From an uncultured Bacteroidales bacterium (lineage in GTDB: Bacteria; Bacteroidota; Bacteroidia; Bacteroidales; VadinHA17): a DNA stretch of 64,000 nucleotides. Of this stretch, positions 7,911 through 63,110 are shown piece by piece (position 1 is the first letter of the stretch; each line of letters begins with the position of its first letter). Below the pieces are notes generated by a model. The model did no database searches. It saw nothing but the letters and a program-made list of their open reading frames with translations, and was not told where the DNA came from. Where the stretch lies: NCBI GenBank assembly GCA_963825165.1, contig CAWGRY010000006.1, positions 396,220-460,219 on the forward strand, written 5' to 3'. Made by a program: the position numbers and the translations under genes.

Positions 7911-8735
7911 ATGAAAAAGATTATCTTCCGTTATCCGTTAGGACTAGCATTTTCGATCCTAATTGTTACCATTTGCCTTTCTTCTTGTAAGAAGTCATTG
8001 AATGATTCTTTCGAAGAAACTATTGCAAAATATGCTGTAGTAGGAACTTACCATGAGGAGGGGCTAAATTACATATTGGATGATTTAAAAGAGCATCATT
8101 CAAAAACGTATTCTAAACTAAATTTGCCTGAAATGATGGGCATTATTGAGTCCTCCAGTGCGGATTTTACAGCAAATTCATTGGATATTCAGGAAGAATC
8201 AGTTTGGCAAATTAAGGAACTCGTCAAATCGATAAATATAGAGAACGCAAAGCTTATCGAAAATCCAAGTATAATAAATATGGTAGAAGATGAAGTGTTA
8301 TTAACAATTAAACAAACCAAATATCTATCAGATCTAGATGGAATTATTTCATGTGTCAGTTTGGGCATTGATCAGTGCGTCAAATCCATTGAGAGACTTG
8401 AACTTGAGATCTGCCAAAACTGTCAATCAAATGAATTGCCACTTCTCCTTTGTGCGACTTCAGTTGGTAAAAGTTCTATTGTCTATTGGTATAAGAATTA
8501 TTATATTTGGGAAGATGGATTAGTGCAGAATGAGACCAAAACAGCAAAAGATCGTGAATGGTTCTGGTCAGCCTTGAATAGGATGGGGAAGGCAGATATT
8601 GCTGGCGGATTATTGGGTGGAGCATTTGGCGCATTAGCTGGTGGAGTTGGGGCAATTCCTGGAGCGATAGCTGGAGCATGCCAATCTTCAGGAACATGCG
8701 GAGTTGTCGTATTATATGAACATTTGGCTAATTAA
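7911..8735 (+). CDS. lipoprotein with a Cys-rich helical region and a C-terminal glycine-zipper (GxxxG array) segment
   Basis: MKKIIFRYPLGLAFSILIVTICLSSCKK contains the lipobox. The C-terminus reads GKADIAGGLLGGAFGALAGGVGAIPGAIAGACQSSGTCG, with 13 Gly in 39 aa and GxxxG in register. Confidence 0.75.
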   Translation: MKKIIFRYPLGLAFSILIVTICLSSCKKSLNDSFEETIAKYAVVGTYHEEGLNYILDDLKEHHSKTYSKLNLPEMMGIIESSSADFTANSLDIQEESVWQIKELVKSINIENAKLIENPSIINMVEDEVLLTIKQTKYLSDLDGIISCVSLGIDQCVKSIERLELEICQNCQSNELPLLLCATSVGKSSIVYWYKNYYIWEDGLVQNETKTAKDREWFWSALNRMGKADIAGGLLGGAFGALAGGVGAIPGAIAGACQSSGTCGVVVLYEHLAN

Positions 8736-8746
8736 ATATAAAGCGG

Positions 8747-8950
8747 ATGAAAAGAAAACTGTTACTTTTTATCGGGGTTTCGGTTGCTTTCATTATTACT
8801 ATTTATCTGGTTTTTCTAATATTCGATTTAATTTCAGGAACTCCAAGAGAAAATGAAGGGAGCGCCATAAAATTTGCGGTATCTGTTGGCGTTTTGACTT
8901 CGGCCTTCATGGTATTTTTTACAAAATTTTTTGAGAAACCGAAAAAATAG
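8747..8950 (+). CDS. 67-aa two-TM membrane protein (paralog of 10211..10414)
   Basis: Two hydrophobic helices flank GTPRENEG. It has the same length and about 40% identity to the 10211 ORF, and starts 12 nt after the lipoprotein stop. Confidence 0.65.
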   Translation: MKRKLLLFIGVSVAFIITIYLVFLIFDLISGTPRENEGSAIKFAVSVGVLTSAFMVFFTKFFEKPKK

Positions 8951-9271
8951 AAAGTCTTTTTGAAAGACGGAGCATCCTTATGGTCTGTAAAGGGCTATAA
9001 TATGTTATTGCAGGGCTTATTTACTGTATATGCCCTGTAAAATATTTAACCAAAGATTCTGAATTGGTCGAGCGAATCTTGGGAAATATGAATTTGTGAT
9101 ATGTTATGTTCCTACCCTAGTGGGCATTAGATATAATCATTCGGCCCTTGAAACAATGAGTTAATCGCATCTGTAGTGTTTTTATGGAGCGTGATGATTT
9201 GAATAGAAATGATGAATTTTTATTATTGGGAAAGAATATAAGGAACATTTAACAACAATAAACCTATAACC

Positions 9272-48663: not shown

Positions 48664-51600
48664 ATGAAAGCTGACTTTTTATTTGAAACAAGCTGGGAAG
48701 TATGCAATAAGGTGGGAGGCATTTATACTGTCATTTCAACCAAAGCGCTGAATGCCACTCACGAATACGGGGACAATTATGTACTGATAGGGCCGGATGT
48801 CTGGCGTGATGACAAGACAAACCCTGAATTCACACCTGACGATACCATGTTTCTTCAGTGGAAGGCTGTTGCCGCCCAGGAAGGTCTGAACGTCAGGACC
48901 GGACGCTGGAATATAAAAGGACAGCCGCGCGTGATGCTGGTTGATTTCACTCCTTATTTCGGTCAGCAGAATGAAATATTTGCCCGTTTCTGGGAAACAT
49001 ATAAGCTTGACAGCATTTCGGGACAATGGGACTATATTGAACCTGCACTGTTCGGTTATGCTGCCGGAAAAGTGATCGAGAGCTTCACCACCTATTACCG
49101 CGAGTTTCCAAGGGTTGTTGCACAGTTTCATGAATGGATGACAGGTACCGGTGTACTCTATCTGGAAAAAAACGCACCCTGGATTACCACGGCATTTACA
49201 ACCCATGCAACGGTGCTGGGCCGCAGCATTGCCGGCAATAACAGGCAGCTATACAGCAAGATTAACGAGTACAACCCGGCGCAGATATCGCATGAGCTTA
49301 ACGTAACCTCAAAGCAGTCGCTCGAAAAGATCACTGCCTCTACGGCTGATGTGTTCACGGCAGTGAGTGAGATCACCGGACGTGAGTGTCTTGCCTTCCT
49401 CGGTAAAAATCCGGACGTTATTACTCCGAACGGTTTTGAGGATACTTTTGTCCCTGCTGCGGAGGACTTTGAGGCCATCAGAAATGCGGCACGGGAAAAA
49501 CTGCTTTTTGTAGCAGGAACCCTGCTGGGATACACCCTTCCTGCAGATACGCTGCTCATTTCAACAAGCGGCCGGTATGAATACAGGAATAAGGGAATTG
49601 ACCTCTTCCTCTCTTCGCTGGGAGCAATAAACAAACAGGTGGATACGAGCCGCCAGTGCGTTGCCTTCATTCTTGTCCCGGCATATCACAAAGGCCCCAG
49701 GCAGGATCTTATGACGGCACTGAACAGCGGGTCCTTTGTTACTGATGGTGACAGATATCTTACCCACGGCCTTCATTATGTCAATGAAGATCCGGTGATC
49801 AACCAGCTTATCAGAGAAGACATCAAAAACCTTCAGGGAGACAGGGTTAAGGTAATTTTCGTTCCGTCATATCTCAACGGCGATGACGGCATCTTCAACA
49901 AAACTTACTATGAACTGCTTATCGGGTTTGACCTGACAATATATCCGTCGTATTATGAGCCATGGGGTTATACGCCCCTTGAGAGCCTCATGTTTCATGT
50001 ACCCACTGTCACTACAGACCTCTCGGGATTTGGTATGTGGGTAAATACTTATTTCAAAGACCCGGGTAACGGTTGTCTGATCCTGCACCGCACTGATGAC
50101 AACGAGAAGGAAGTCATCGCCGAAATGGAGAAGCTTATCCGGTGTTTTATGCAGATGAGCATGGGAGATGCGGGAATTGCCAGGGACAAAGCATGGGAAA
50201 TATCACGCATCGCTAACTGGAACACCCTTTTTCATTTTTATACTGATGCCTATACTTTTGCCCTTGAAAAGAGCGAAGACCGGGGCGGGCAGCCAAGGGA
50301 TTATGCGCGCATACTGGAAGCTACCGAAGTGCAGGTTCGCAAACCTTACCAGGTCCCGGTATGGAAGGATATTTACGTTCAGTCGGAGCTGCCTGAACGC
50401 ATTGGTTATCTGAAAGACCTTGCCTCCAACCTGTGGTGGTCATGGAACAGCGATGCCGAGTTCCTCTTCCGCCGGATGGACCCTACCCTTTGGGAAGAAG
50501 TATCGCATAATCCTAAACGATTGCTCGAGACAATTGATTACAAGAGGCTCGTTGTGCTGGCAGATGATGAGGTCTTTCTCGAAGACTCAGACAGGATCTT
50601 CAGGCAGTTCAATGAATATCTTGCGAGACCTGATAACAATGAGCTTCCTTCGGTGGCATATTTCAGCATGGAGTTTGGCATTCATCCTTCTCTTAAGATC
50701 TACTCGGGAGGACTTGGTGTTCTTGCCGGTGATTACCTGAAGGAGGCCAGTGACTCAAATGTCAGGATCACTGGAATAGGGTTACTCTACCGGTATGGGT
50801 ATTTCAGGCAGAAGCTCGGCCCGAAGGGTGAACAGCAGGCAATCTATGAGTTGGAAGATTTTTCCCAGATACCGGTTACCCCGGTCAAGGATTCCATAAA
50901 CAATCCGCTTACCATCTTTCTCACCTGGCCGGGACGAACAGTTAAAGCCCGTGTATGGCTTGCCTCCGTAGGGAAGGTCAATCTGTTCCTGCTCGATACG
51001 GATATTGAAGAAAACACTCCGGAAGACAGGGCTATAACACACTACCTGTACGGAGGCGATTCGGAGAACAGGCTGAAACAGGAGCTTATACTTGGTATCG
51101 GAGGCATGCGTGCACTCATTGCACTTGGCATCAAGCCCGACATTTACCACAGCAATGAAGGCCATTCTGCATTCATCGGGTTCGAACGCATGCGCCATCT
51201 TATCGAAGATGACCACCTAACTTTTGAACAGTCACTTGAGATCATCAGAGCGTCAACTCTTTTTACCACTCATACCCCCGTGCCTGCGGGGCATGATGCT
51301 TTTGAAGAAGATCTCCTCAGGAAATATATCTCGCATTATCACACCAGGCTTAACATAACATGGGATCAGCTGATGGCCCTCGGGCGCTGCCAGGGCGATA
51401 ATGACCGTAAGTTCAATATGAGTTTTCTGGCCACACGCTTCTCCCAGGAGATGAACGGTGTGAGCCAGCTTCACGGCAAGGTTTCACGCGGCCTCTTCTC
51501 GAAACTGTGGCCCGGATACCTCAAAGAGGAACTGTATATCGGTTATGTGACCAACGGAGTTCACTATTCGACATGGGTAGCCCCGGAATGGGAGCAGATT

Positions 51601-52887
51601 TACGAAAAGCTGACCGGAACGAAGAATTTTGACCAGAGCGACAGGGAGCAGTGGAGCAAAATATACGAGGTTGAAGATCAGAAGGTGTTCGAGACCAAGA
51701 TGAAGCTCAAGAAGCGGCTCTTCGATCATATACGCAAACGCCTGCAGACCAATATGCTTGAGAGGCATGTCAGCCCCCGCACATTAATGAACATCAGCAG
51801 TCATCTGAACGAGAAGGCGCTTACCATCGGTTTTGCCAGACGGTTTGCCACTTACAAGAGAGCGACGCTTCTATTCCGCGATCTCGACAGACTGGCAAAA
51901 ATTGTCAATAATGCAGAGAGACCTGTTCAGTTTATCTTTGCCGGCAAGGCACACCCCAATGACGGCGGAGGACAGGATCTGATAAGACGTATCAATGAGG
52001 TCTCCCAGATGCCGCAGTTTGCAGGTAAGGTGCTTTTCCTCGAGAACTATGACATGGAGATGGCCAGGTACCTCGTCCGCGGGGTAGATATATGGCTTAA
52101 CACTCCCACACGACCGCTGGAAGCATCAGGTACCAGCGGCGAGAAGGCTGTCATGAACGGTACGATACATTTCAGCGTGCTCGACGGATGGTGGGTTGAA
52201 GGGTATCATGCTTTCGCCGGATGGGCCCTCCCGAAAAAACGGACATATACGAACCAGGATCTCCAGGATGATGTAGATTCCGAGACGATATACAATATGC
52301 TGGAATACGAAATAGTTCCTGCTTATTATTCAAGGGATACCGATGGTATCCCCCGCGAGTGGACCAGCTACATCAAGAACACGATGGTAAAAGTGGCTCC
52401 GGAGTTCACCACCAGGCGTATGCTTAGTGATTACCTCGAAAGATATTATACCAAGCTGTATGAGAGGAGCAAGCGAATGACGGCCAATGACTACGCTCTT
52501 GCCCGTGAGCTTGCTGACTGGAAAAGCGAGATAACCAGGAAGTGGGATGAGATTGAAATCATCAAGTATGATTTCAAGAATGCCATTAAAAATGTTTACC
52601 GTTCAGGCCATAACTACTCCACTGAGATAATTCTTGACATAAAAAATATTCCTCCTGAGAATGTAGGGGTTGAATTTGTGGTTACCCGTCAGATGCAGAA
52701 TGGCGAGCATGTTTTTTTCACAAGCAAGGAATTCAAACTGGTCAGCAAAAAGAAAGGGCGGGTAATATACGGTGTCGAGTTTCAGCCTGAGATGGCAGGT
52801 ACGTTTTTCTACGGGATCCGTATTTATGCCAAGCATAAGGAACTCCCCAACAGGCAGGATTTCTGCCTGCTTAGGTGGGTTGACTGA
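48664..52887 (+). CDS. fusion protein: GT3 (eukaryote-type) glycogen synthase N-terminal half plus GT35 alpha-glucan phosphorylase C-terminal half
   Basis: The N-terminus FETSWEVCNKVGGIYTVISTKA is GT3-like. From about residue 560 the sequence reads NLWWSWN...AYFSMEFGIHPSLKIYSGGLGVLAGDYLKEASD...EASGTSGEKAVMNG, which is GT35 with the PLP-Lys region. It is a single uninterrupted 1407-codon frame. Confidence 0.85.
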   Translation: MKADFLFETSWEVCNKVGGIYTVISTKALNATHEYGDNYVLIGPDVWRDDKTNPEFTPDDTMFLQWKAVAAQEGLNVRTGRWNIKGQPRVMLVDFTPYFGQQNEIFARFWETYKLDSISGQWDYIEPALFGYAAGKVIESFTTYYREFPRVVAQFHEWMTGTGVLYLEKNAPWITTAFTTHATVLGRSIAGNNRQLYSKINEYNPAQISHELNVTSKQSLEKITASTADVFTAVSEITGRECLAFLGKNPDVITPNGFEDTFVPAAEDFEAIRNAAREKLLFVAGTLLGYTLPADTLLISTSGRYEYRNKGIDLFLSSLGAINKQVDTSRQCVAFILVPAYHKGPRQDLMTALNSGSFVTDGDRYLTHGLHYVNEDPVINQLIREDIKNLQGDRVKVIFVPSYLNGDDGIFNKTYYELLIGFDLTIYPSYYEPWGYTPLESLMFHVPTVTTDLSGFGMWVNTYFKDPGNGCLILHRTDDNEKEVIAEMEKLIRCFMQMSMGDAGIARDKAWEISRIANWNTLFHFYTDAYTFALEKSEDRGGQPRDYARILEATEVQVRKPYQVPVWKDIYVQSELPERIGYLKDLASNLWWSWNSDAEFLFRRMDPTLWEEVSHNPKRLLETIDYKRLVVLADDEVFLEDSDRIFRQFNEYLARPDNNELPSVAYFSMEFGIHPSLKIYSGGLGVLAGDYLKEASDSNVRITGIGLLYRYGYFRQKLGPKGEQQAIYELEDFSQIPVTPVKDSINNPLTIFLTWPGRTVKARVWLASVGKVNLFLLDTDIEENTPEDRAITHYLYGGDSENRLKQELILGIGGMRALIALGIKPDIYHSNEGHSAFIGFERMRHLIEDDHLTFEQSLEIIRASTLFTTHTPVPAGHDAFEEDLLRKYISHYHTRLNITWDQLMALGRCQGDNDRKFNMSFLATRFSQEMNGVSQLHGKVSRGLFSKLWPGYLKEELYIGYVTNGVHYSTWVAPEWEQIYEKLTGTKNFDQSDREQWSKIYEVEDQKVFETKMKLKKRLFDHIRKRLQTNMLERHVSPRTLMNISSHLNEKALTIGFARRFATYKRATLLFRDLDRLAKIVNNAERPVQFIFAGKAHPNDGGGQDLIRRINEVSQMPQFAGKVLFLENYDMEMARYLVRGVDIWLNTPTRPLEASGTSGEKAVMNGTIHFSVLDGWWVEGYHAFAGWALPKKRTYTNQDLQDDVDSETIYNMLEYEIVPAYYSRDTDGIPREWTSYIKNTMVKVAPEFTTRRMLSDYLERYYTKLYERSKRMTANDYALARELADWKSEITRKWDEIEIIKYDFKNAIKNVYRSGHNYSTEIILDIKNIPPENVGVEFVVTRQMQNGEHVFFTSKEFKLVSKKKGRVIYGVEFQPEMAGTFFYGIRIYAKHKELPNRQDFCLLRWVD

Positions 52888-54954: not shown

Positions 54955-57318
54955 TTATTCCGGCCGATTTATATCAATCAACTCTGTTATGTTAAAAGGA
55001 TACTTACCAGGGCCGGAGACAGAGATATTCAGTCTGAATGTATCAGGATAATCCGGGTACGGTAACCTGAATGAATATTCCTGGCCACCTTCGGGACTTA
55101 ACAGCGGTGACCACAGCAGGGTATTGCTTAACGAGGGACTTCTTCCGTCCTTTTCTGTGGTAAAGGCTTTGAATTTTATCTCCGGATCGGAGAACAGGTA
55201 ACTGATTCTTGTCGCTGCTTCGGGAAGAACCTGCTGCCTGTAATCTCCCTGTCTGGTAACAACATTTATGACCGGTGGCAGCAATACCTCTCCAAGCCTG
55301 TAAGGCTCAAAAGTGATATCAATATACTCGGTTTTCTCAGGGAGTATTTCCGCAATGGTACCGGGATCAGTTGTATATATACCGTCAATGAATATCATAG
55401 GTGTATCCTTCAACTCATTACCGGTAATGGGATCGAACATCCTGAAGAAGTACCCGCGGCGGCTGTTAACGAGATCTATGTTGGGAACGAGTTCAAAGAA
55501 AACCTCCTCCATATTCGGTAATGCGATAAAGTCTGACATTAACAGGTGAAAGCCGGGTTTTCCATAGAAGTGACCGATACTTTCATCAACACCTGGAAGT
55601 GCCAGGGTATCGGTCTCCGTGATATTGTAGATCCTCATGACCTGGCTGTTAATGCTCATACGCAGAACGGAACTGTCTGCTTCAGCCCTGACGGCTGCCA
55701 CTGAACTGTAAAGGGGAATAAAATCATCAGAGAATGACGCAGAGGTTTTTATTACAATATTGTCAGCAGTATCGCGGGGGTAGACAACAATCTCTGCTGA
55801 TCCCCTTCGTGGAGGAACAATGAAGTTAAATCTGCCGGCTCTGTCGGTTCTGGTATACTGAAGAAAGCAATTTTTTCCGGGAAGATTAATAAACAGGAAT
55901 TTTCCGGCGGCAGGACGGAGGTTGTCAAGATTGGTGACAACGCCGCTAACGACCAGTCCATGAGTTTCACCGGCGGTGATTGGAATTTCTTCGTGTTTGC
56001 TGTACAGATGCCTGTCATTCAGTGTTATCAGCAGGTTATCACTTATCTCCGCAACGCCTGATATGAAAGGTTCCATGAAAGGGTCATTCATTGTCGCGGT
56101 TGTGATCCAGCTGGATAAGCACGAATAGGACCGGAGGTCAATTCCAGGATGATCATCAGAAACGGTTACTGCCACAGATGCGGATGATATTCCCCGGGGC
56201 AGTCTGACAACCAGGGTATCATGCCTGATTATATAACCGATATCATTTTTCGTAACACTGTTCAGGCTTACGTCATCATTCATGAACAACCTTGATGACA
56301 AAAGATTTCCGCTATGATCGTACAGGAGGGCTTCATTAATACCCGGAGCAAGGTCACTGAAGTTTATCTCTACCGTGGTTTCTTCCTGAGCGATGTCAAG
56401 TTGTCTGTAGAAGCTTATTTTGCCCGGGCTTATTATTGCAAGGTGCAATGGTCCGGCTGCGTCACCGGTGGCTTGGACTATTATGCTTCCAGTTTGGTTC
56501 CGGAGGCCTGAGAATGCCAGCGAATAATCCGATCGTGAGTAAGGGGGAATTTCTGCCCTGACCTCCTTTGATTCTATTTGTGCCATGGCAACCAGCGTCC
56601 CGGTTTTTGAGGGTATGATATTAACCGAAGCCAGTCCTGTCGCATCGGTGGTAACGGAATCGGTGACGGTGCCTTCAGGGTCAGTGAAAAATACTTTTAC
56701 CGGCACTCCTCCACCCCCCTGGCCTGTCGACCTGACTACAACCTTATTTACTGTGCCCGGCACCATAGCACCTCCTTCAGGGTACAGGGCAAGTGACGGA
56801 CCGGCTATCTCTGCGGTAAGTCTTATCCGGTCATAGTCAGCGTCCATGGTATAAGGATTGAAAACCCTTATCCTGGAAGTGAAGAAGTGATCGGGTCCGA
56901 GAAATGCCATTGCCCTGGTATAGCCTCTCAGGATATAATCACCTGAAGCAATTGTATCAGGAAGTGACAGCAGGCCTGTCCCCGTCCCATTTTTATCAAT
57001 CAGTATCCGGCTCTGTGCGACAGGGGTATTAAGAGAGTTAAGGATTTCTGCATATCCGGCCTTACTCTGCCTTTCAGCCTTATCACCGGACCGCTGCACC
57101 AGCATCGTATACCATACATTCTCACCGGCGATGTAAATGTTACGGTCACTGATGATCAAGACTGATTCATACCCATCAATTAACGGATGCTGCCGGATGT
57201 TGATCAGAGTATCGGCAGGGTCAGTCATAGTTGTAGCCGGGCTGGCTGATGAAGAGAGACCAATCCTGACGAGGACGATAATTACCGTCAGAAGATTTTT
57301 ATTTCGCGAAGCCCTCAT
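54955..57318 (-). CDS. 787-aa secreted protein, function unknown (weak MG2/alpha-2-macroglobulin-like and carboxypeptidase-regulatory-like features)
   Basis: The ATG at 57318 gives MRASRNKNLLTVIIVLVRIGLSSSA; the track start at 57372 is TTG. ISDRNIYIAGENVWYTM resembles MG2-domain starts. It overlaps the upstream gene by 20 nt. Confidence 0.7.
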   Translation of the reverse strand: MRASRNKNLLTVIIVLVRIGLSSSASPATTMTDPADTLINIRQHPLIDGYESVLIISDRNIYIAGENVWYTMLVQRSGDKAERQSKAGYAEILNSLNTPVAQSRILIDKNGTGTGLLSLPDTIASGDYILRGYTRAMAFLGPDHFFTSRIRVFNPYTMDADYDRIRLTAEIAGPSLALYPEGGAMVPGTVNKVVVRSTGQGGGGVPVKVFFTDPEGTVTDSVTTDATGLASVNIIPSKTGTLVAMAQIESKEVRAEIPPYSRSDYSLAFSGLRNQTGSIIVQATGDAAGPLHLAIISPGKISFYRQLDIAQEETTVEINFSDLAPGINEALLYDHSGNLLSSRLFMNDDVSLNSVTKNDIGYIIRHDTLVVRLPRGISSASVAVTVSDDHPGIDLRSYSCLSSWITTATMNDPFMEPFISGVAEISDNLLITLNDRHLYSKHEEIPITAGETHGLVVSGVVTNLDNLRPAAGKFLFINLPGKNCFLQYTRTDRAGRFNFIVPPRRGSAEIVVYPRDTADNIVIKTSASFSDDFIPLYSSVAAVRAEADSSVLRMSINSQVMRIYNITETDTLALPGVDESIGHFYGKPGFHLLMSDFIALPNMEEVFFELVPNIDLVNSRRGYFFRMFDPITGNELKDTPMIFIDGIYTTDPGTIAEILPEKTEYIDITFEPYRLGEVLLPPVINVVTRQGDYRQQVLPEAATRISYLFSDPEIKFKAFTTEKDGRSPSLSNTLLWSPLLSPEGGQEYSFRLPYPDYPDTFRLNISVSGPGKYPFNITELIDINRPE

Positions 57319-58435
57319 CCCAGTAATCAGGTTTAATGTTAGATCCCATGTATGCACAATCGGTACACCCAATATTGGTGGTCAGAGCCCAGAATGTTGC
57401 TCCATTGTGGTCCTCATCTGCGTATTGATGAAGGGCAAAATAAATGGTACCCAGACCCGCAAGGGAAGAATCTGCTGGTTCCCTGTCCGTAACACATTTG
57501 TCGGTATAGTGATCGGGAGTAATAAGGCGATCCTTTATAAATATTCGTTTATAACTTACTCCTGAGACGCTGAAAAAGCCGAGTACAACTTCTGCAGGGT
57601 CAGATATGCACTGCATATTCCCGGTCACTGACACGGGGGTGACATCATACAGACCTCCGGTATTTTGCGACATGATCCTGATCTTATCCCAGAATTCATA
57701 TTCTTCCCTGCTTAGTGAATACTGTTTCACAAGCATGCTGTACTTGTACATGCCCCTGTCGGTCGAATTATTGTACGTGGTCAGTACAAGGTCTGTGACC
57801 CTGTCTTCGGAGAGTGCTTCTGTGTTGGCTATGAGAATATTATGTGACAGTTCGGACATCCAGCATATACGTTTTTCCTTTGGCAGTAGATTAAAGGGCA
57901 GGTGAAATTCCCATGTCTCTTCAAATGCCCACCGGAAATAGTGGCAACTGCCTGTTGGATCTAGTGTGCTAAGAGTTACCCTGGTTGCCTTTTCCGTTTC
58001 ACCCGAAGCATTGATTTCACGGTCAAATATTTCATAGCCGAGGCTGTCAATCGGCGGTACAGGTTTCAGTGCACTTAATGATGAAGAGTACTGCTTCCCG
58101 TTGTATTCAATATTAAGAACGTAACTTCTTCCTGTCTGGCCTGTGAATACCGTTGAGTCGCTGATGTATTTTCCGGGGCTCTTCTCCGTGAAATTATATG
58201 AATTGCCAAGATCATCACTGACAGATACCCTGGCCTTTACAGCCGGTTTTTCGGCAGATGTTTCATCAAGCGGATGCGATATACCCAGTATTATACTGTA
58301 ACGTCTGTTTTCATCCGTCACAAGACCGTTGACAGTCAGGTAATCAATCTGTGAGACAATCTCAGGAGTGAACAGACTGATACAGGAAGCGGTTGCTGCC
58401 GAAAGAAATAGTGTTATGATTTTGCTGGTCTTCAT
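57299..58435 (-). CDS. DUF4249-like lipoprotein, copy B of a tandem pair
   Basis: 378 aa with lipobox LSAATASC. It is about 92% identical to copy A over the first ~300 aa. Confidence 0.8.
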   Translation of the reverse strand: MKTSKIITLFLSAATASCISLFTPEIVSQIDYLTVNGLVTDENRRYSIILGISHPLDETSAEKPAVKARVSVSDDLGNSYNFTEKSPGKYISDSTVFTGQTGRSYVLNIEYNGKQYSSSLSALKPVPPIDSLGYEIFDREINASGETEKATRVTLSTLDPTGSCHYFRWAFEETWEFHLPFNLLPKEKRICWMSELSHNILIANTEALSEDRVTDLVLTTYNNSTDRGMYKYSMLVKQYSLSREEYEFWDKIRIMSQNTGGLYDVTPVSVTGNMQCISDPAEVVLGFFSVSGVSYKRIFIKDRLITPDHYTDKCVTDREPADSSLAGLGTIYFALHQYADEDHNGATFWALTTNIGCTDCAYMGSNIKPDYWDEGFAK

Positions 58436-58443
58436 CTCATATT

Positions 58444-58548
58444 TCAGAAATCAATCCTGTTTATGGCATAGCCAGTTGCGGTGGAAATGCTTACCCGGGC
58501 GAGGACAAGGATTACCAACAGAAGATAATTATTTCGCGAAGCCCTCAT
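58444..58548 (-). pseudogene. chimeric 34-codon junction remnant of the tandem duplication
   Basis: It translates to MRASRNNYLLLVILVLARVSISTATGYAINRIDF*. The first ~19 codons mirror the 787-aa gene start. The last codons (RIDF*) mirror the TonB-dependent receptor C-terminus (YRIDF*). Confidence 0.7.
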
Positions 58549-59662
58549 CCCAGTAATCAGGTTTAATGTTTGAACCTTTGTATGCGCAATCAGTACACCC
58601 TATGTTGGAAGTTATAGTCCAGGCTGGATTATCCGTGTCAGGGTAAGAGGTAGCACTAAGAATAAAAATTGCGGTACCCAGTCCGGGAGGTGAAGAATTT
58701 GGTGGTATATATCCTTCAACACATTTGTCAGTATAGAGATCGCGAAAAGGCAGCGATCTCTTAATGAATATTCTTTTATAACTGACCCCCGAGACGCTGA
58801 AGAAGCCGAGAACGATTTCTGAAGGGTCGGTTATGCACTGTATGTTCCCGGTCACTGACACGGGGGTGACATCATAAAGACCTCCGGTATTTTGCGACAT
58901 GATCCTGATCTTATCCCAGAATTCATATTCTTCCCTGCTTAGTGAATACTGTTTCACAAGCGTGGTGTACTTGTACATGCCCCTCTCGGTTGAATTATTG
59001 AATGTGGTCAGCGTAAAGTTTGTTATCCTGTCTTCCGATAGCGCTTCTGTGTTGGCTATGAGAATATTATGTGACAGTTCCGACATCCAGCATATACGTT
59101 TTTCCCTGGGCAGGAGATTAAATGGAAGATCCATTTCCCATGTCTCTTCAAATGCCCACCGGAAAAAGTGGCAACTGCCTGTAGGGTCAAGTGTACTGAG
59201 GGCTACCCTGGTTGCCTTTTCCGTTTCACCCGAAGCATTGATTTCACGGTCAAATATTTCATAGCCGAGGCTGTCGATCGGCGGTACCGGCTTCAGTGCG
59301 CTTAAAGATGAAGAGTACTGCTTCCCGTTGTATTCGATATTCAGAACATAACTTCTTCCTGTCTGGCCTGTGAATACCGTTGAGTCACTGATGTATTTTC
59401 CCGGGCTCTTCTCCGTGAAATTATATGAATTGCCAAGATCATCACTGACAGATACCCTGGCCTTTACAGCCGGTTTTTCGGCAGATGTTTCATCAAGCGG
59501 ATGCGAGATACCAAGTATTATACTGTAACATCTGTTTTCATCCGTGACAAGACCGTTGACAGTCAGGTAATCATCCTGTGAGACGATCTCAGGAGTGAAC
59601 AGACTGATACAGGAAGCGGCTGCTGCCGAAAGAAATAATATTATGATTTTGCCGATCTTCAT
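58529..59662 (-). CDS. DUF4249-like lipoprotein, copy A of a tandem pair
   Basis: 377 aa with lipobox LSAAAASC. It lies directly downstream of the TBDR with an 8-nt gap. Confidence 0.8.
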   Translation of the reverse strand: MKIGKIIILFLSAAAASCISLFTPEIVSQDDYLTVNGLVTDENRCYSIILGISHPLDETSAEKPAVKARVSVSDDLGNSYNFTEKSPGKYISDSTVFTGQTGRSYVLNIEYNGKQYSSSLSALKPVPPIDSLGYEIFDREINASGETEKATRVALSTLDPTGSCHFFRWAFEETWEMDLPFNLLPREKRICWMSELSHNILIANTEALSEDRITNFTLTTFNNSTERGMYKYTTLVKQYSLSREEYEFWDKIRIMSQNTGGLYDVTPVSVTGNIQCITDPSEIVLGFFSVSGVSYKRIFIKRSLPFRDLYTDKCVEGYIPPNSSPPGLGTAIFILSATSYPDTDNPAWTITSNIGCTDCAYKGSNIKPDYWDEGFAK

Positions 59663-59670
59663 TTAACGTT

Positions 59671-62403
59671 TCAGAAATCAATCCTGTAGGATATGGTTGG
59701 TATGGTTCTGCCGAATATTGACAGACTGTAGCCCTGTATCTTTCCGTGTTCAATGCGGAAGTATACGGAATAGATGTTCTCGCGCCCGGTTACATTATAT
59801 ACGGAGATATTCCATGACGGCCGGAAAGTCTTTGAGGCTTTCAGGTTGCTGTACAGATTCATGGATACATCCCACCTGAAATAATCCGGGAGCCTGTACT
59901 GGTTCCGGTCAGAATAATGGATCACATTAACTCCGTCATGAAGATACCACGTGACAGGGTAGGTTACCGGCCTGCCGGTGTAGTATACAAAATTCATGCT
60001 CCAGTTAATTCTTCTTGAATAAAGGTAACTGATCTGAAGATTAAGGTCATGCGGCCTGTCATAATTGGCAGGGTAGTAAGCTCCCTCGTTAATTAATTCC
60101 GAATCAAAGGAGCCGGTACTGCGGAGAAGAACGCGTGACCATGTATAATTCAGTGTGGTTTTAAATTTGCCCCTGTTCTTTTTAAGCATGATCTCAACTC
60201 CGTAAGCTTTGCCTTCCGCCGGGATAAGATCCTGCTCTATAAGTTCATTCATTGTCAGGATTGCTCCCCCCTTATAGTCAATAAGATTATGCAGCCATTT
60301 ATAATAGCCGTCTGCTGACAGTTCATAGTCGTTATCGAGTATGTCAAGGTAAAAGCCTGCTGCCACCTGATCTCCGTACTGTGGCCTGATATGGTAATCG
60401 CTCATCTTCCAGGTGTCGGTAGGGGAGACTGAGATGGTATTTGACAGCAGATGAAGGTATTGATAGGTTCTGTTATAGTTGATCTTAAGTGAGCTGCCGC
60501 CTGAAATCCTGTAGTTCAGTGACAGCCTTGCCTCGGGCCCAGCGTAGGCTTTTATGATGTTTCCCGGCCCGAAATAAATTGAATCTATCATAGTATTCAT
60601 CTCTTTTGAAAAGAGAGGATTATATAAATAAACCGTCTGGGGGCCCAGGGCCAGGAATGATGACAGGCGGAACCCTGCCCTTACCGTCAGGAGTCCTGCA
60701 AGCTCAGCCTTATAGTCTGCATATAGTGCTGTTTCAAGTCCTGTCTCAGTATCGATCTTTTCATTTTTTATTACCGACAGGGGAGGAACAGCTGTACGGG
60801 TTCCCGGGCTGATCAGGTGAAGGCTGGTTTCTCCTCCGAACTGCATCTCATGGCCGGAAGTAAGGTACCATGTTAAATTTGCTTTTCCTGATGTGGTATT
60901 CACCTTATGGGTCATCGTAGCTGCATATTCGGGGATGCCGGAGTTGGACACCTCGTACCTGAAATTGCTGTTGTTGAGGCTGAAGACGGCAAAGAGTGAC
61001 TGGGAGATGGCATGCCTGAACCGTGCGGCGACGATCAGGTTGTCATAGGTATAGGTGGTATCGCTGTTAAACCTGAAGCTGTCGTGGCTCAGGTATGCTG
61101 ATAGCTCGAGCTTGCTGTTCTTGCCGATGTCAGTGATGACATGCCCGTTGATGTCATAAAAACCTGCCGTACTGTTTCGCAGGGCAGCATTTGGAAGCAG
61201 ATCCAGCATCCAGTTCGAGTAGGTAGTCCTTCCGGCAAGAATAAAGGATGATTTGTCCTTTATTATAGGTCCTTCGACAGTGGCATGTGCTGCAACCATG
61301 CTTATACCCACATTACCCGAATAATCTTTTTTATTACCGTCTTTCTCGGTGATATCCATGATTGAAGAAACCCGGCCTCCGTACTGGGCAGGTATACCTC
61401 CTTTATACAGAGAGACATCGTTTATCACTTCGGAGTTCACTGAAGAGAAAAAGCCGAAGAAGTGCGACGAGTAGTACATGGGAGCGCCGTAGAGCAGGAT
61501 AAGGTTCTGGTCCGCAGAACCGCCCCTCACATTAAACCCTGCTGCACCTTCTCCGACGGACTGGACTCCTGGCATCAGCAGAACGCTTTTTAAAAGGTCG
61601 GCCTCTCCCAATGAAGAAGGCGACAGCCTGATGGTCATAATATTCATCCTTGCCATGCCGCTCTCGAGCCTGTCAAGTTTTTCCCTCCTGCTGGCCGTCA
61701 CAACGGCTTCCTTGATTGCAATAATTCGTTCAATGAGCGCAATATTTATCCGCCCGCTGGAATAAAGGTTAACATTCCTGTATGTATCGTATGATCCCAG
61801 TGACCTGTATTCCACTTTGTACGACCCTCTTGGAGCTGAAAGGGAATAATAGCCATCATGATTGGTCATTGCACCCAGGCCCAGCTCCCTGATAAAGACA
61901 GAGGCTCCGGGGATCGGTTCCCCGGTGGCATCATTAGTGATATAGCCTGACAGGTACGCCCTGTCTTCCCTGTACTTATCACCTGGCCGGCCAAAAGTAA
62001 TCATATCACTCTCTTTAGCTTTAAGGGATGCTGTCTCTAAAGTATCTTTAATGTACATGATTTGCTGATCTGCAGTGTCGTCGGAAAAGTCAGCCCTGAC
62101 CCTGTATCCTTTGGTGATAAAGATATTACCTGCCTTGTCATCAAAGCAATAGAGTCCGCGCGGAGTGATAATCATACCTATAACTTCCAGGGGTTTAGCA
62201 TTCTCCCAGGTACCTGTAACAGTCAGGTTATCAACCCATTCAATTTTATAAAATATACGGGTACCGGTTGCTGATTCAAGGCTGACGACGAAGTCACTGA
62301 AAGGCACCCCGTCAGCATGGCCGCTGAAAAGCTTGCCCTGTTCCTGTGCCGGTAGCAATATTACCGTCATTAACAGGATGACTGTTCCTGTCAGTCTCTT
62401 CAT
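59671..62403 (-). CDS. TonB-dependent receptor with N-terminal STN-like and CarboxypepD_reg-like domains
   Basis: 910 aa. VPFSDFVVSLESATGTRIFYKIEWVDNLTVTG is STN-like. YLSGYITNDATGEPIPGASVFI is the CarboxypepD_reg-like region. The plug reads DLLKSVLLMPGVQSVGEGAAGFNVRGGSADQNLILLYGAPMY. The terminal strand is ISYRIDF. Confidence 0.88.
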   Translation of the reverse strand: MKRLTGTVILLMTVILLPAQEQGKLFSGHADGVPFSDFVVSLESATGTRIFYKIEWVDNLTVTGTWENAKPLEVIGMIITPRGLYCFDDKAGNIFITKGYRVRADFSDDTADQQIMYIKDTLETASLKAKESDMITFGRPGDKYREDRAYLSGYITNDATGEPIPGASVFIRELGLGAMTNHDGYYSLSAPRGSYKVEYRSLGSYDTYRNVNLYSSGRINIALIERIIAIKEAVVTASRREKLDRLESGMARMNIMTIRLSPSSLGEADLLKSVLLMPGVQSVGEGAAGFNVRGGSADQNLILLYGAPMYYSSHFFGFFSSVNSEVINDVSLYKGGIPAQYGGRVSSIMDITEKDGNKKDYSGNVGISMVAAHATVEGPIIKDKSSFILAGRTTYSNWMLDLLPNAALRNSTAGFYDINGHVITDIGKNSKLELSAYLSHDSFRFNSDTTYTYDNLIVAARFRHAISQSLFAVFSLNNSNFRYEVSNSGIPEYAATMTHKVNTTSGKANLTWYLTSGHEMQFGGETSLHLISPGTRTAVPPLSVIKNEKIDTETGLETALYADYKAELAGLLTVRAGFRLSSFLALGPQTVYLYNPLFSKEMNTMIDSIYFGPGNIIKAYAGPEARLSLNYRISGGSSLKINYNRTYQYLHLLSNTISVSPTDTWKMSDYHIRPQYGDQVAAGFYLDILDNDYELSADGYYKWLHNLIDYKGGAILTMNELIEQDLIPAEGKAYGVEIMLKKNRGKFKTTLNYTWSRVLLRSTGSFDSELINEGAYYPANYDRPHDLNLQISYLYSRRINWSMNFVYYTGRPVTYPVTWYLHDGVNVIHYSDRNQYRLPDYFRWDVSMNLYSNLKASKTFRPSWNISVYNVTGRENIYSVYFRIEHGKIQGYSLSIFGRTIPTISYRIDF

Positions 62404-63110
62404 TCCGTCTTCGTTTTAGCAGTAAGAGAGTCGTAAAAGACGGCCGCATTAATAAATCCTGCCGGAGAACTGTTACTGAGATATAGATTTTTCTGCCGTA
62501 TAAATTTTCTTACAGGAATTTCATATTCGCCCATGAGATCAAGAAATGATGACCTGTTTCTGACCTGGAAGCAGCTTCCGTTCAGAACCAGGTAGTATTT
62601 CGTTTCCTCCCTGAACTCCGCATAATTGGCTCCGGCAGGATTTTTTGAGACAACTTTTATATGTCTGGCAATAACGGAACTGGTCCCCTGGTACAATATT
62701 TCTGCAAACCCGCTTATTCCGGGATATGTCTCCCTGAGATTAACGAACCTTTCGGGGATGCCGTTGTACACTATTGTAAACTCATCCACTTTTTTGCTGT
62801 CGATAATTATCGGTGAGCCGTTCTTCCACAGCACTATTATGCCATCATTGAAGATGTCATATTTCAGGCGTACATCCTTAAACGTTATTCCGTCGATTGT
62901 GACAGTACCGGACAGGGCTTCAGACGTAAGGAAAAACTCATGTCCTGCTGCCATCTGCATTGCAGGATGCCATTCGACTCCGCTGTACAGGAGCTGGTCA
63001 TACCAGGCAGCGTCGCTGCTCACGGGTGACATCTGGGGATTCTGGGCTTTCAATGCAGAAATGCTCAGGAAAAGAAACATGCAGCTGATTACTTTCTTGT
63101 TCAAAGGCAT
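62400..63110 (-). CDS. 236-aa secreted protein, function unknown; first gene of the TBDR operon
   Basis: Signal peptide MPLNKKVISCMFLFLSISALKAQ. It has an ATGA overlap with the TBDR start. Confidence 0.7.
   Translation of the reverse strand: MPLNKKVISCMFLFLSISALKAQNPQMSPVSSDAAWYDQLLYSGVEWHPAMQMAAGHEFFLTSEALSGTVTIDGITFKDVRLKYDIFNDGIIVLWKNGSPIIIDSKKVDEFTIVYNGIPERFVNLRETYPGISGFAEILYQGTSSVIARHIKVVSKNPAGANYAEFREETKYYLVLNGSCFQVRNRSSFLDLMGEYEIPVRKFIRQKNLYLSNSSPAGFINAAVFYDSLTAKTKTE

Follow-up and report, generated by a model that had tools for sequence, protein, structure and literature searches.

Proteins of the DUF4249 family are putative lids of transporters outside the SusC family (bioRxiv 10.1101/2023.03.17.533168; PMC11003636). 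In Bacteroides thetaiotaomicron, BT2173 is cofit with BT2172, AlphaFold-Multimer places BT2173 on the outer face of the transporter, and the pairing of transporter and DUF4249 protein is conserved across dozens of genera (same two sources). We analyzed a stretch of 64,000 nucleotides (nt) from an uncultured Bacteroidales bacterium of the VadinHA17 lineage (assembly GCA_963825165.1, contig CAWGRY010000006.1, positions 396,220 to 460,219), hereafter the window, in which two DUF4249 genes, copies A and B, stand in tandem behind a single transporter gene. As in the BT2172/BT2173 system (Price, Deutschbauer and Arkin 2023; PLoS One 2024), a lipoprotein of this Pfam family is encoded directly after a non-SusC transporter with CarboxypepD_reg and Plug domains, and a SusD gene is missing; unlike that system, two tandem lid genes are found here behind one transporter, and the likeness is one of family and layout.

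The locus comprises five consecutive minus-strand genes that encode, in order, a 236-residue (aa) protein, a TonB-dependent transporter (TBDT), DUF4249-B, DUF4249-A, and an MG2-like protein, and these are followed by a gene for glycogen branching enzyme; unless stated otherwise, all features below lie on the minus strand. The TBDT (59671–62403; 910 aa, ending in YRIDF and the stop codon) matches the Pfam families CarbopepD_reg_2, CarboxypepD_reg, and Plug. DUF4249-B (58529–59662; 377 aa) and the mosaic copy DUF4249-A (57299–58435; 378 aa) match PF14054 with 132.2 and 137.6 bits, respectively, against a gathering cut-off of 28.5 bits, and both matches span profile positions 4–269 of 269. The MG2-like gene, the last of the cassette (54955–57318), encodes a secreted protein of 787 aa from the ATG at 57318, with an MG2 score of 31.9 bits that falls just below the cut-off of 32.8; its homologues are also 787 aa long.

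The tandem repeat and its joint

The two DUF4249 genes lie in head-to-tail units that aligned pairwise with 87% identity across ~1200 nt (E = 0) at a spacing of 1227–1230 nt. On the basis of the alignments and the repeat spacing, unit A occupies 57231–58460 (1230 nt) and unit B 58461–59687 (1227 nt), the latter consisting of the last 17 nt of the TBDT gene, an 8-nt spacer, DUF4249-B, and the first 88 nt of an MG2-like gene. The original prediction had proposed two head-to-tail units of about 1.23 kb, each with a DUF4249 lipoprotein gene, and the alignment and the PF14054 scores bore this out; the limits it gave (57261–58490 and 58491–59715) were wrong and are replaced by those above. Immediately 5' of both DUF4249 start codons we found 17 nt identical to the end of the TBDT gene (ACAGGATTGATTTCTGA) and then the 8-nt spacer, and 3' of both stop codons we found the start of an MG2-like gene, i.e., a second copy of that start follows DUF4249-B. 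The similarity of the units runs past the gene borders on both sides and does not stop at them. Tandem Repeats Finder reported nothing for this repeat, the period of which is above the program's 500-nt limit.

The comparison with related genomes that had been proposed as a check yielded a single copy with the same neighbours in every one examined. The DUF4249 copy number was one, with identical gene order, in 20/20 related loci (L001–L007 and L018–L030, from 7 species-representative genomes and 13 metagenome contigs), the TBDT genes of which share 84–94% nt identity with that of the window, apart from the more distant L005 and L006 (69%). Because all 20 relatives carry one copy, we conclude that the duplication is derived and lineage-specific. 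That a genuine tandem duplication exists at all is very probable.

Between the two DUF4249 genes lies the 34-codon open reading frame (ORF) described earlier (58444–58548; 105 nt), which is a chimeric remnant of the junction: MG2-like codons 1–30 occupy 58461–58548, the triplet ACA lies at 58458–58460, and the 3' end of the TBDT gene occupies 58444–58457. The joint reads ...GCCATAAACA followed directly by GGATTGATTTCTGA, and the frame is continuous from MG2-like codon 30 into RIDF and the stop codon. The TBDT-derived end of the remnant measures 14 nt, or 17 identical nt when ACA is counted, so that the earlier identification of this end with the end of the TBDT gene holds at 17/17 nt. In loci L026 and L002, the parental sequences are GCCATAAACA/TGAC in the MG2-like gene and ATCCTACA/GGATTGA in the TBDT gene (the slash marks the breakpoint), and only ACA is common to them. 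An unequal-crossover duplication of the segment from the TBDT 3' end to the MG2-like 5' end had been suggested; the tandem duplication of this segment stands, but homologous crossing-over between repeats does not, since the joint has only 3 nt of microhomology and is therefore attributed to an illegitimate, microhomology-mediated join.

The remnant does repeat the start of the MG2-like gene, as had been noted, but over 88–91 nt (30 codons) rather than the ~57 nt first estimated. Its protein sequence (MRASRNNYLLLVILVLARVSISTATGYAIN) matches that of L026 (MMALRNKYLLTVILVLARVSLSTSSGQAIN) at 22/30 residues and 73/88 nt, whereas it matches the start of the window's own MG2-like gene at 61/88 nt, and it is colinear with L002 and L026 over the 30 codons with no insertion or deletion. 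The MG2-derived part had looked shorter because the start of the window's own MG2-like gene has a different ancestry. A run of 19 identical bases at the start of the ORF (atgagggcttcgcgaaata) is real as an identity but fails as independent evidence of a shared flank, because the MG2-like ATG overlaps the DUF4249 stop and the run lies inside the DUF4249 coding sequence; the evidence resides in the bases after the stop. When neutral decay was simulated with 10–30% random substitution, the ORF stayed open in 61–84% of the simulations. Estimated by hand, the probability that the TBDT remnant would be identical at 17/17 nt by chance is roughly 0.02–0.3, so this end is not significantly conserved. 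Selection on the 34-codon ORF, or a role for it as a gene or translational relay, is not supported, since neutral decay often leaves such a frame open. We interpret the ORF as a neutral scar rather than a gene.

Ancestry, age, and variable region of the copies

The ancestry of the copies was examined by quartet informative sites, neighbour-joining bootstraps, and branch counts of derived changes. The informative sites in gene nt 1–630 and 687–764 mostly join copy A with copy B, and over nt 1–630 the two are sisters with 99% bootstrap support (neighbour-joining). Over nt 835–1095, copy B falls inside the clade of L026, L018, L023, and L025 with 100% bootstrap support and copy A is excluded. Between 40 and 57 quartet sites join A with the outgroup and B with L026, and almost all of these are located 3' of nt 835. 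This 3' third of copy A (57341–57601), which includes the hypervariable region described below, carries 77 derived changes versus 6 in B, and the imbalance persists when synonymous changes only are counted (24 versus 2, p = 1e-5). Faster protein evolution cannot explain the synonymous excess, and we therefore assign the segment a different, foreign allelic ancestry; the nearest allele to A in this interval is that of L002, at 82% nt identity. A second, small patch of copy A (57771–57796; gene nt 640–665) also groups with L002-type alleles, the identities being 92% for A and L002, 73% for A and B, and 96% for B and L026. Copy B shares 93.2% nt identity with L026 over nt 1–900 and is the orthologue of the single DUF4249 gene of the nearest relatives.

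The neighbouring genes were compared in the same way. The MG2-like gene of the window is ~85% identical in nt to its counterparts in L026, L018, and L002, whereas those three are 91–95% identical among themselves. The branching-enzyme gene behaves normally (~93% nt identity to all three), and the TBDT gene shares 92–94% nt identity with L018 and L026. These values suggest that the MG2-like gene of the window is, over its whole length, an allele that was imported or has evolved fast. The resident MG2 start, of L026 type, survives in the junction remnant, and the working MG2-like gene beside copy A is the divergent allele. The copies have diverged, as originally stated, but not by simple divergence in place, the 3' third of copy A and the MG2-like gene being of other origin.

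Over codons 1–278, the synonymous divergence (dS) between A and B is 0.23, compared with 0.22 for L026 and L018 and 0.27 for B and L026. The A–B value is close to that of sister species, and the duplication is therefore old. With L026 as the reference, nt 1–630 show 13 synonymous changes on the A branch and 13 on the B branch, from which it follows that the copies are of equal age. Amino acid changes in the same interval number 10 in copy A versus 2 in copy B, a difference that is suggestive only (Fisher p = 0.08). The ratio of nonsynonymous to synonymous divergence (dN/dS) between the copies over codons 1–278 is 0.17, and neither copy departs from any of the 35 invariant columns of a 66-sequence alignment of the family. 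Both copies are under purifying selection, and the intactness of two genes at this divergence argues that each is being maintained. Recent gene conversion between A and B was considered and rejected, as their near-identical stretches are equally conserved in L018.

The divergence of the two proteins is concentrated near the C-terminus. Comparison of A and B with each other and with orthologues delimited a hypervariable region at codons 301–356 of copy A (57368–57535) and codons 301–355 of copy B (58598–58762; L026/L018 type). The A–B identity is 43% over codons 301–356 versus 92% over codons 1–300, and orthologues that are 85–90% identical in the body show 40–60% identity in this segment. Among near relatives, dN in the segment is 4–5 times that of the body, and dN/dS for orthologue pairs of different types is 0.35–0.57 and never above 1. 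The segment occurs in stable allele classes, B being 94% identical in nt to L026. A conserved framework is present in or near it (C314, L328, and T352, with a C357-x-D359-C360 motif just after), and in the AlphaFold2 model of copy A (predicted local distance difference test score, pLDDT, 87.5) the variable segment is folded with a pLDDT of 90–95. The TBDT barrel shows no hypervariable segment and no loop co-variation with lid type. We infer from this lack of a matching segment in the barrel that the hypervariable region is not the docking surface, and the comparison suggests an orientation towards the ligand or the exterior. The data point to a fast C-terminal segment as a feature of the whole family, one not described in the DUF4249 papers found by literature search.

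Origin of the two-copy locus

We consider it probable that the locus arose by an old, lineage-specific tandem duplication of the lid gene in situ, followed by allele replacement. An illegitimate join at the 3-nt ACA would have connected the MG2-like gene at position +88 with the TBDT gene at position -17 on an L026-like resident haplotype, duplicating 1.23 kb and leaving the in-frame 34-codon scar. Later homologous recombination with a divergent, unsampled allele may then have replaced the 3' third of copy A, the promoter-distal copy, together with most of the MG2-like gene, in which case the scar would be the sole remaining record of the resident MG2 start. Two lids would widen or change what the surface partner of the transporter binds, or what binds it.

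Several observations weigh against this account. The two-copy state is seen in one assembly, where copies A and B are both recorded on a single public contig of 534,666 bp, and a 23-mer across the joint had no match in a metagenome contig collection; an 18-mer of the joint gave 55 matches in that collection, all due to chance and none with TBDT or DUF4249 homology. The import of the 3' third of copy A is read from phylogenetic incongruence, and no donor of the variable region was found: the best alleles are that of L002 noted above and a single fragment with 72% aa identity (L007 contig) returned by a search with the C-terminal 109 aa of copy A. The lid role itself was derived from genetic data and a structure prediction on a distant homologue in Bacteroides, and for copies A and B it is putative.

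An unlikely competitor is import in a single step, in which homology on the MG2/GlgB side anchored foreign DNA that ran from position -17 of the TBDT gene through DUF4249 and the MG2-like gene, the other end being joined illegitimately at position +88 of the resident MG2-like gene. The second copy would then have been foreign from the start, and later conversion from B would have homogenised the first ~630–830 nt of A. Such an event would account at once for the joint, the foreign 3' third of copy A, and the outlying MG2-like gene, and the L002-like patch at nt 640–665 could be an unconverted island. A microhomology of 3 nt is typical of homology-facilitated illegitimate joins, a mechanism reportedly described in 2002 by de Vries and Wackernagel and by Prudhomme et al. 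The 99% sisterhood of the 5' parts of A and B can be explained, however, only by an additional conversion tract of at least 630 nt, with which import ties with the in-situ duplication in the number of events, and no donor lineage was found.

It is more improbable still that A and B are old paralogues from a duplication that preceded the whole clade, with the relatives each having lost one copy and conversion keeping the 5' two-thirds alike. The variable region of copy A is far from every sampled allele, and tandem DUF4249 arrays in distant Bacteroidota show that multi-copy states are not rare. Against this, all 20 relatives, which represent several species-level lineages, have one copy and no trace of the joint, so that several clean losses would be needed; the remnant groups with the modern MG2 signal-peptide type of L026 and L002 rather than outside all of them, and in its 3' third copy A likewise branches within the modern alleles, beside that of L002. 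An ancient duplication followed by repeated loss is less parsimonious than either duplication followed by replacement or one-step import.

The original prediction had also stated that the repeat was not an assembly artefact of identical repeats, and we find a false haplotypic duplication, in which the alleles of two co-occurring strains or species were wrongly placed in tandem, highly improbable. In favour of an artefact, the contig was assembled from a metagenome, signatures of long-read error are seen in relatives from similar projects, B-type alleles occur elsewhere as single-copy genes, and the joint was seen in no other assembly. Nevertheless, non-homologous positions are fused at the joint through 3 bases, an outcome that neither overlap nor k-mer steps of an assembler would generate, and the remnants on either side measure only 17 and 88 nt. 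The MG2 remnant has decayed to 69% identity with the real gene next to it, whereas an erroneous join of near-identical flanks would give the opposite; the A–B dS of 0.23 is a species-level distance that assemblers keep apart; and both DUF4249 genes and all of their neighbours are intact ORFs. Finally, targeted hypermutation by a diversity-generating retroelement or similar system as the source of the C-terminal difference might be brought to mind by a variable block of ~55 codons near the C-terminus of a surface protein with conserved sequence on either side, but it is dismissed as extremely improbable, since the 64-kb window holds no third copy or template repeat of the region (no explicit search for a reverse transcriptase was made), the substitutions lack adenine bias and are accompanied by indels, synonymous sites are equally affected, and the block varies between species as stable allele classes.

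The operon, its putative lids, and related arrays

The first gene of the operon (62400–63110) encodes the 236-aa protein, which has a signal-peptide-like N-terminus by eye and no family match in Pfam or NCBIfam; it is kept at the same position in all related loci and in those of Hymenobacter, Pedobacter, and Sphingobacteriaceae. The TBDT scored 45.5 bits with the SusC/RagA model TIGR04056 (cut-off 368) and is not a SusC family member, and the ORF list and Pfam searches revealed no SusD-like gene in the operon, which does not encode a SusC/SusD pair. The TBDT stop is separated by 8 nt from the start of DUF4249-B on the same strand, and the first 20 nt of the MG2-like gene overlap the end of DUF4249-A, stop included, in another frame (ATGAGGGCTTCGCGAAATAA; 57299–57318). 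These stop/start arrangements along the operon are compatible with translational coupling. No terminator-like site was detected on the minus strand inside the operon, and promoter and terminator scans, which do not cover Bacteroidota promoters, remained at chance level. The closest relatives (nt identity of ~84% or higher) share the MG2/DUF4249 overlap and the 8-nt TBDT spacing, both of which recur around the scar ORF (58529–58548).

Further features of the neighbourhood and of the related loci were recorded. The first 150 aa of the TBDT (61954–62403), which precede the CarboxypepD_reg domain, gave no Pfam match even at a permissive threshold, and no other part of the transporter varies as much between relatives as this extension (73–84% identity versus >90% elsewhere). 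BT2172 has been called a signal-transducing TBDT in a preprint, and the extension may be a divergent signalling domain. The plus strand carries a 1407-aa ORF (48664–52887) that converges on the branching-enzyme gene. In related loci, the corresponding ORFs have annotations that combine domains of glycogen synthase, DUF3417, and glycogen phosphorylase in a single protein. In L004 the DUF4249 gene (8001–9134) ends two codons early, and in L007 (8001–9135), L023, L024, and L025 frameshifts interrupt the DUF4249 gene or genes next to it; the truncation and the frameshifts are probably long-read consensus errors, not pseudogenes.

Both DUF4249 proteins begin with lipoprotein signals that by eye place a lipobox cysteine at position 18 (MKTSKIITLFLSAATAS-C18 and MKIGKIIILFLSAAAAS-C18), a residue that at least 90% of 66 homologues share. 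The residues after this cysteine (ISLFTPE) are not obviously acidic as a surface-export signal. The AlphaFold2 model of copy A consists of tandem beta-sandwiches, and when solved structures were searched by fold and by sequence, the only matches were to generic immunoglobulin/fibronectin type III (Ig/FnIII) beta-sandwiches (TM 0.2–0.35). By analogy with the Bacteroides pair, the operon would most likely yield one transporter with two alternative lids that share a common scaffold and differ in their C-terminal modules.

A single DUF4249 copy is the norm elsewhere among the loci surveyed, and tandem arrays in the same four-gene cassette, with one transporter, were found in three more distant Bacteroidota: three copies in Hymenobacter crusticola (L008:7956–11419), five in a Pedobacter metagenome-assembled genome (MAG; L017:3357–8846), and at least eight full-length copies in a Sphingobacteriaceae MAG (L015:3939–12831). 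The copies within these arrays share 41–87% aa identity, and copies 4–7 of L015, the ones examined window by window, are least conserved near the C-terminus. The window thus shows a first step of recurrent lid-gene expansion. It is possible, though we hold it doubtful, that the lids are modular, with a docking scaffold and an exchangeable C-terminal module that determines ligand specificity or is a phage or antibody target, and that repertoires are built by tandem amplification and allele swapping; if so, the window would capture the two-copy stage with scar and module swap both legible, and the three-, five-, and eight-copy arrays would be end states.

Other arrangements of the cassette were also noted. 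In two more distant Bacteroidota MAGs, L005:4398–16648 (recorded as Rikenella sp.) and L006:4598–16928 ("Bacteroidetes bacterium"), the whole cassette occurs twice in tandem; the transporter and lid of the first cassette are ~67% and ~58% identical to those of the window, and those of the second ~42% and ~37%. In another Bacteroidales lineage (L086:219–15116), a single-copy cassette lies among heparinase-II/III-like and glycoside hydrolase family 2 (GH2) glycosidase genes, and this setting, which resembles a polysaccharide utilization locus, hints at a glycan-related substrate for this class of transporter.

The locus provides a clean and datable example of the multiplication of a transporter accessory lipoprotein in Bacteroidota, with breakpoints resolved to the base, in which one copy is conserved and the other has been remodelled by what appears to be allele exchange. 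If lids set substrate choice, paired lids that differ almost only in a C-terminal segment would be a ready-made experiment for mapping specificity. Otherwise, this is ordinary gene-family evolution in an uncultured organism, made somewhat more interesting by its mosaic history and the variable module.

Some SusC/SusD loci of Bacteroidota include extra surface glycan-binding lipoproteins or duplicated susC/susD pairs. The locus described here resembles them in that the surface partners of a transporter diversify by duplication, but it involves another protein family and fold, and only the lid, not the transporter, has been duplicated. In bacteria, most tandem duplications do not persist stably and are observed while their copies are near-identical. 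The repeat in the window shares with microhomology-mediated duplications in bacteria the head-to-tail arrangement, a single novel distal-to-proximal joint, 3 nt of microhomology, and a single copy in relatives; unlike most bacterial tandem duplications, this pair has lasted to a dS of 0.23 with both genes intact and with the 3' third of one exchanged. It is most like the arrays of Hymenobacter, Pedobacter, and Sphingobacteriaceae in having multiplied the lid gene of the same cassette, and it differs from those older arrays in showing the two-copy stage with the scar of the joint still legible.

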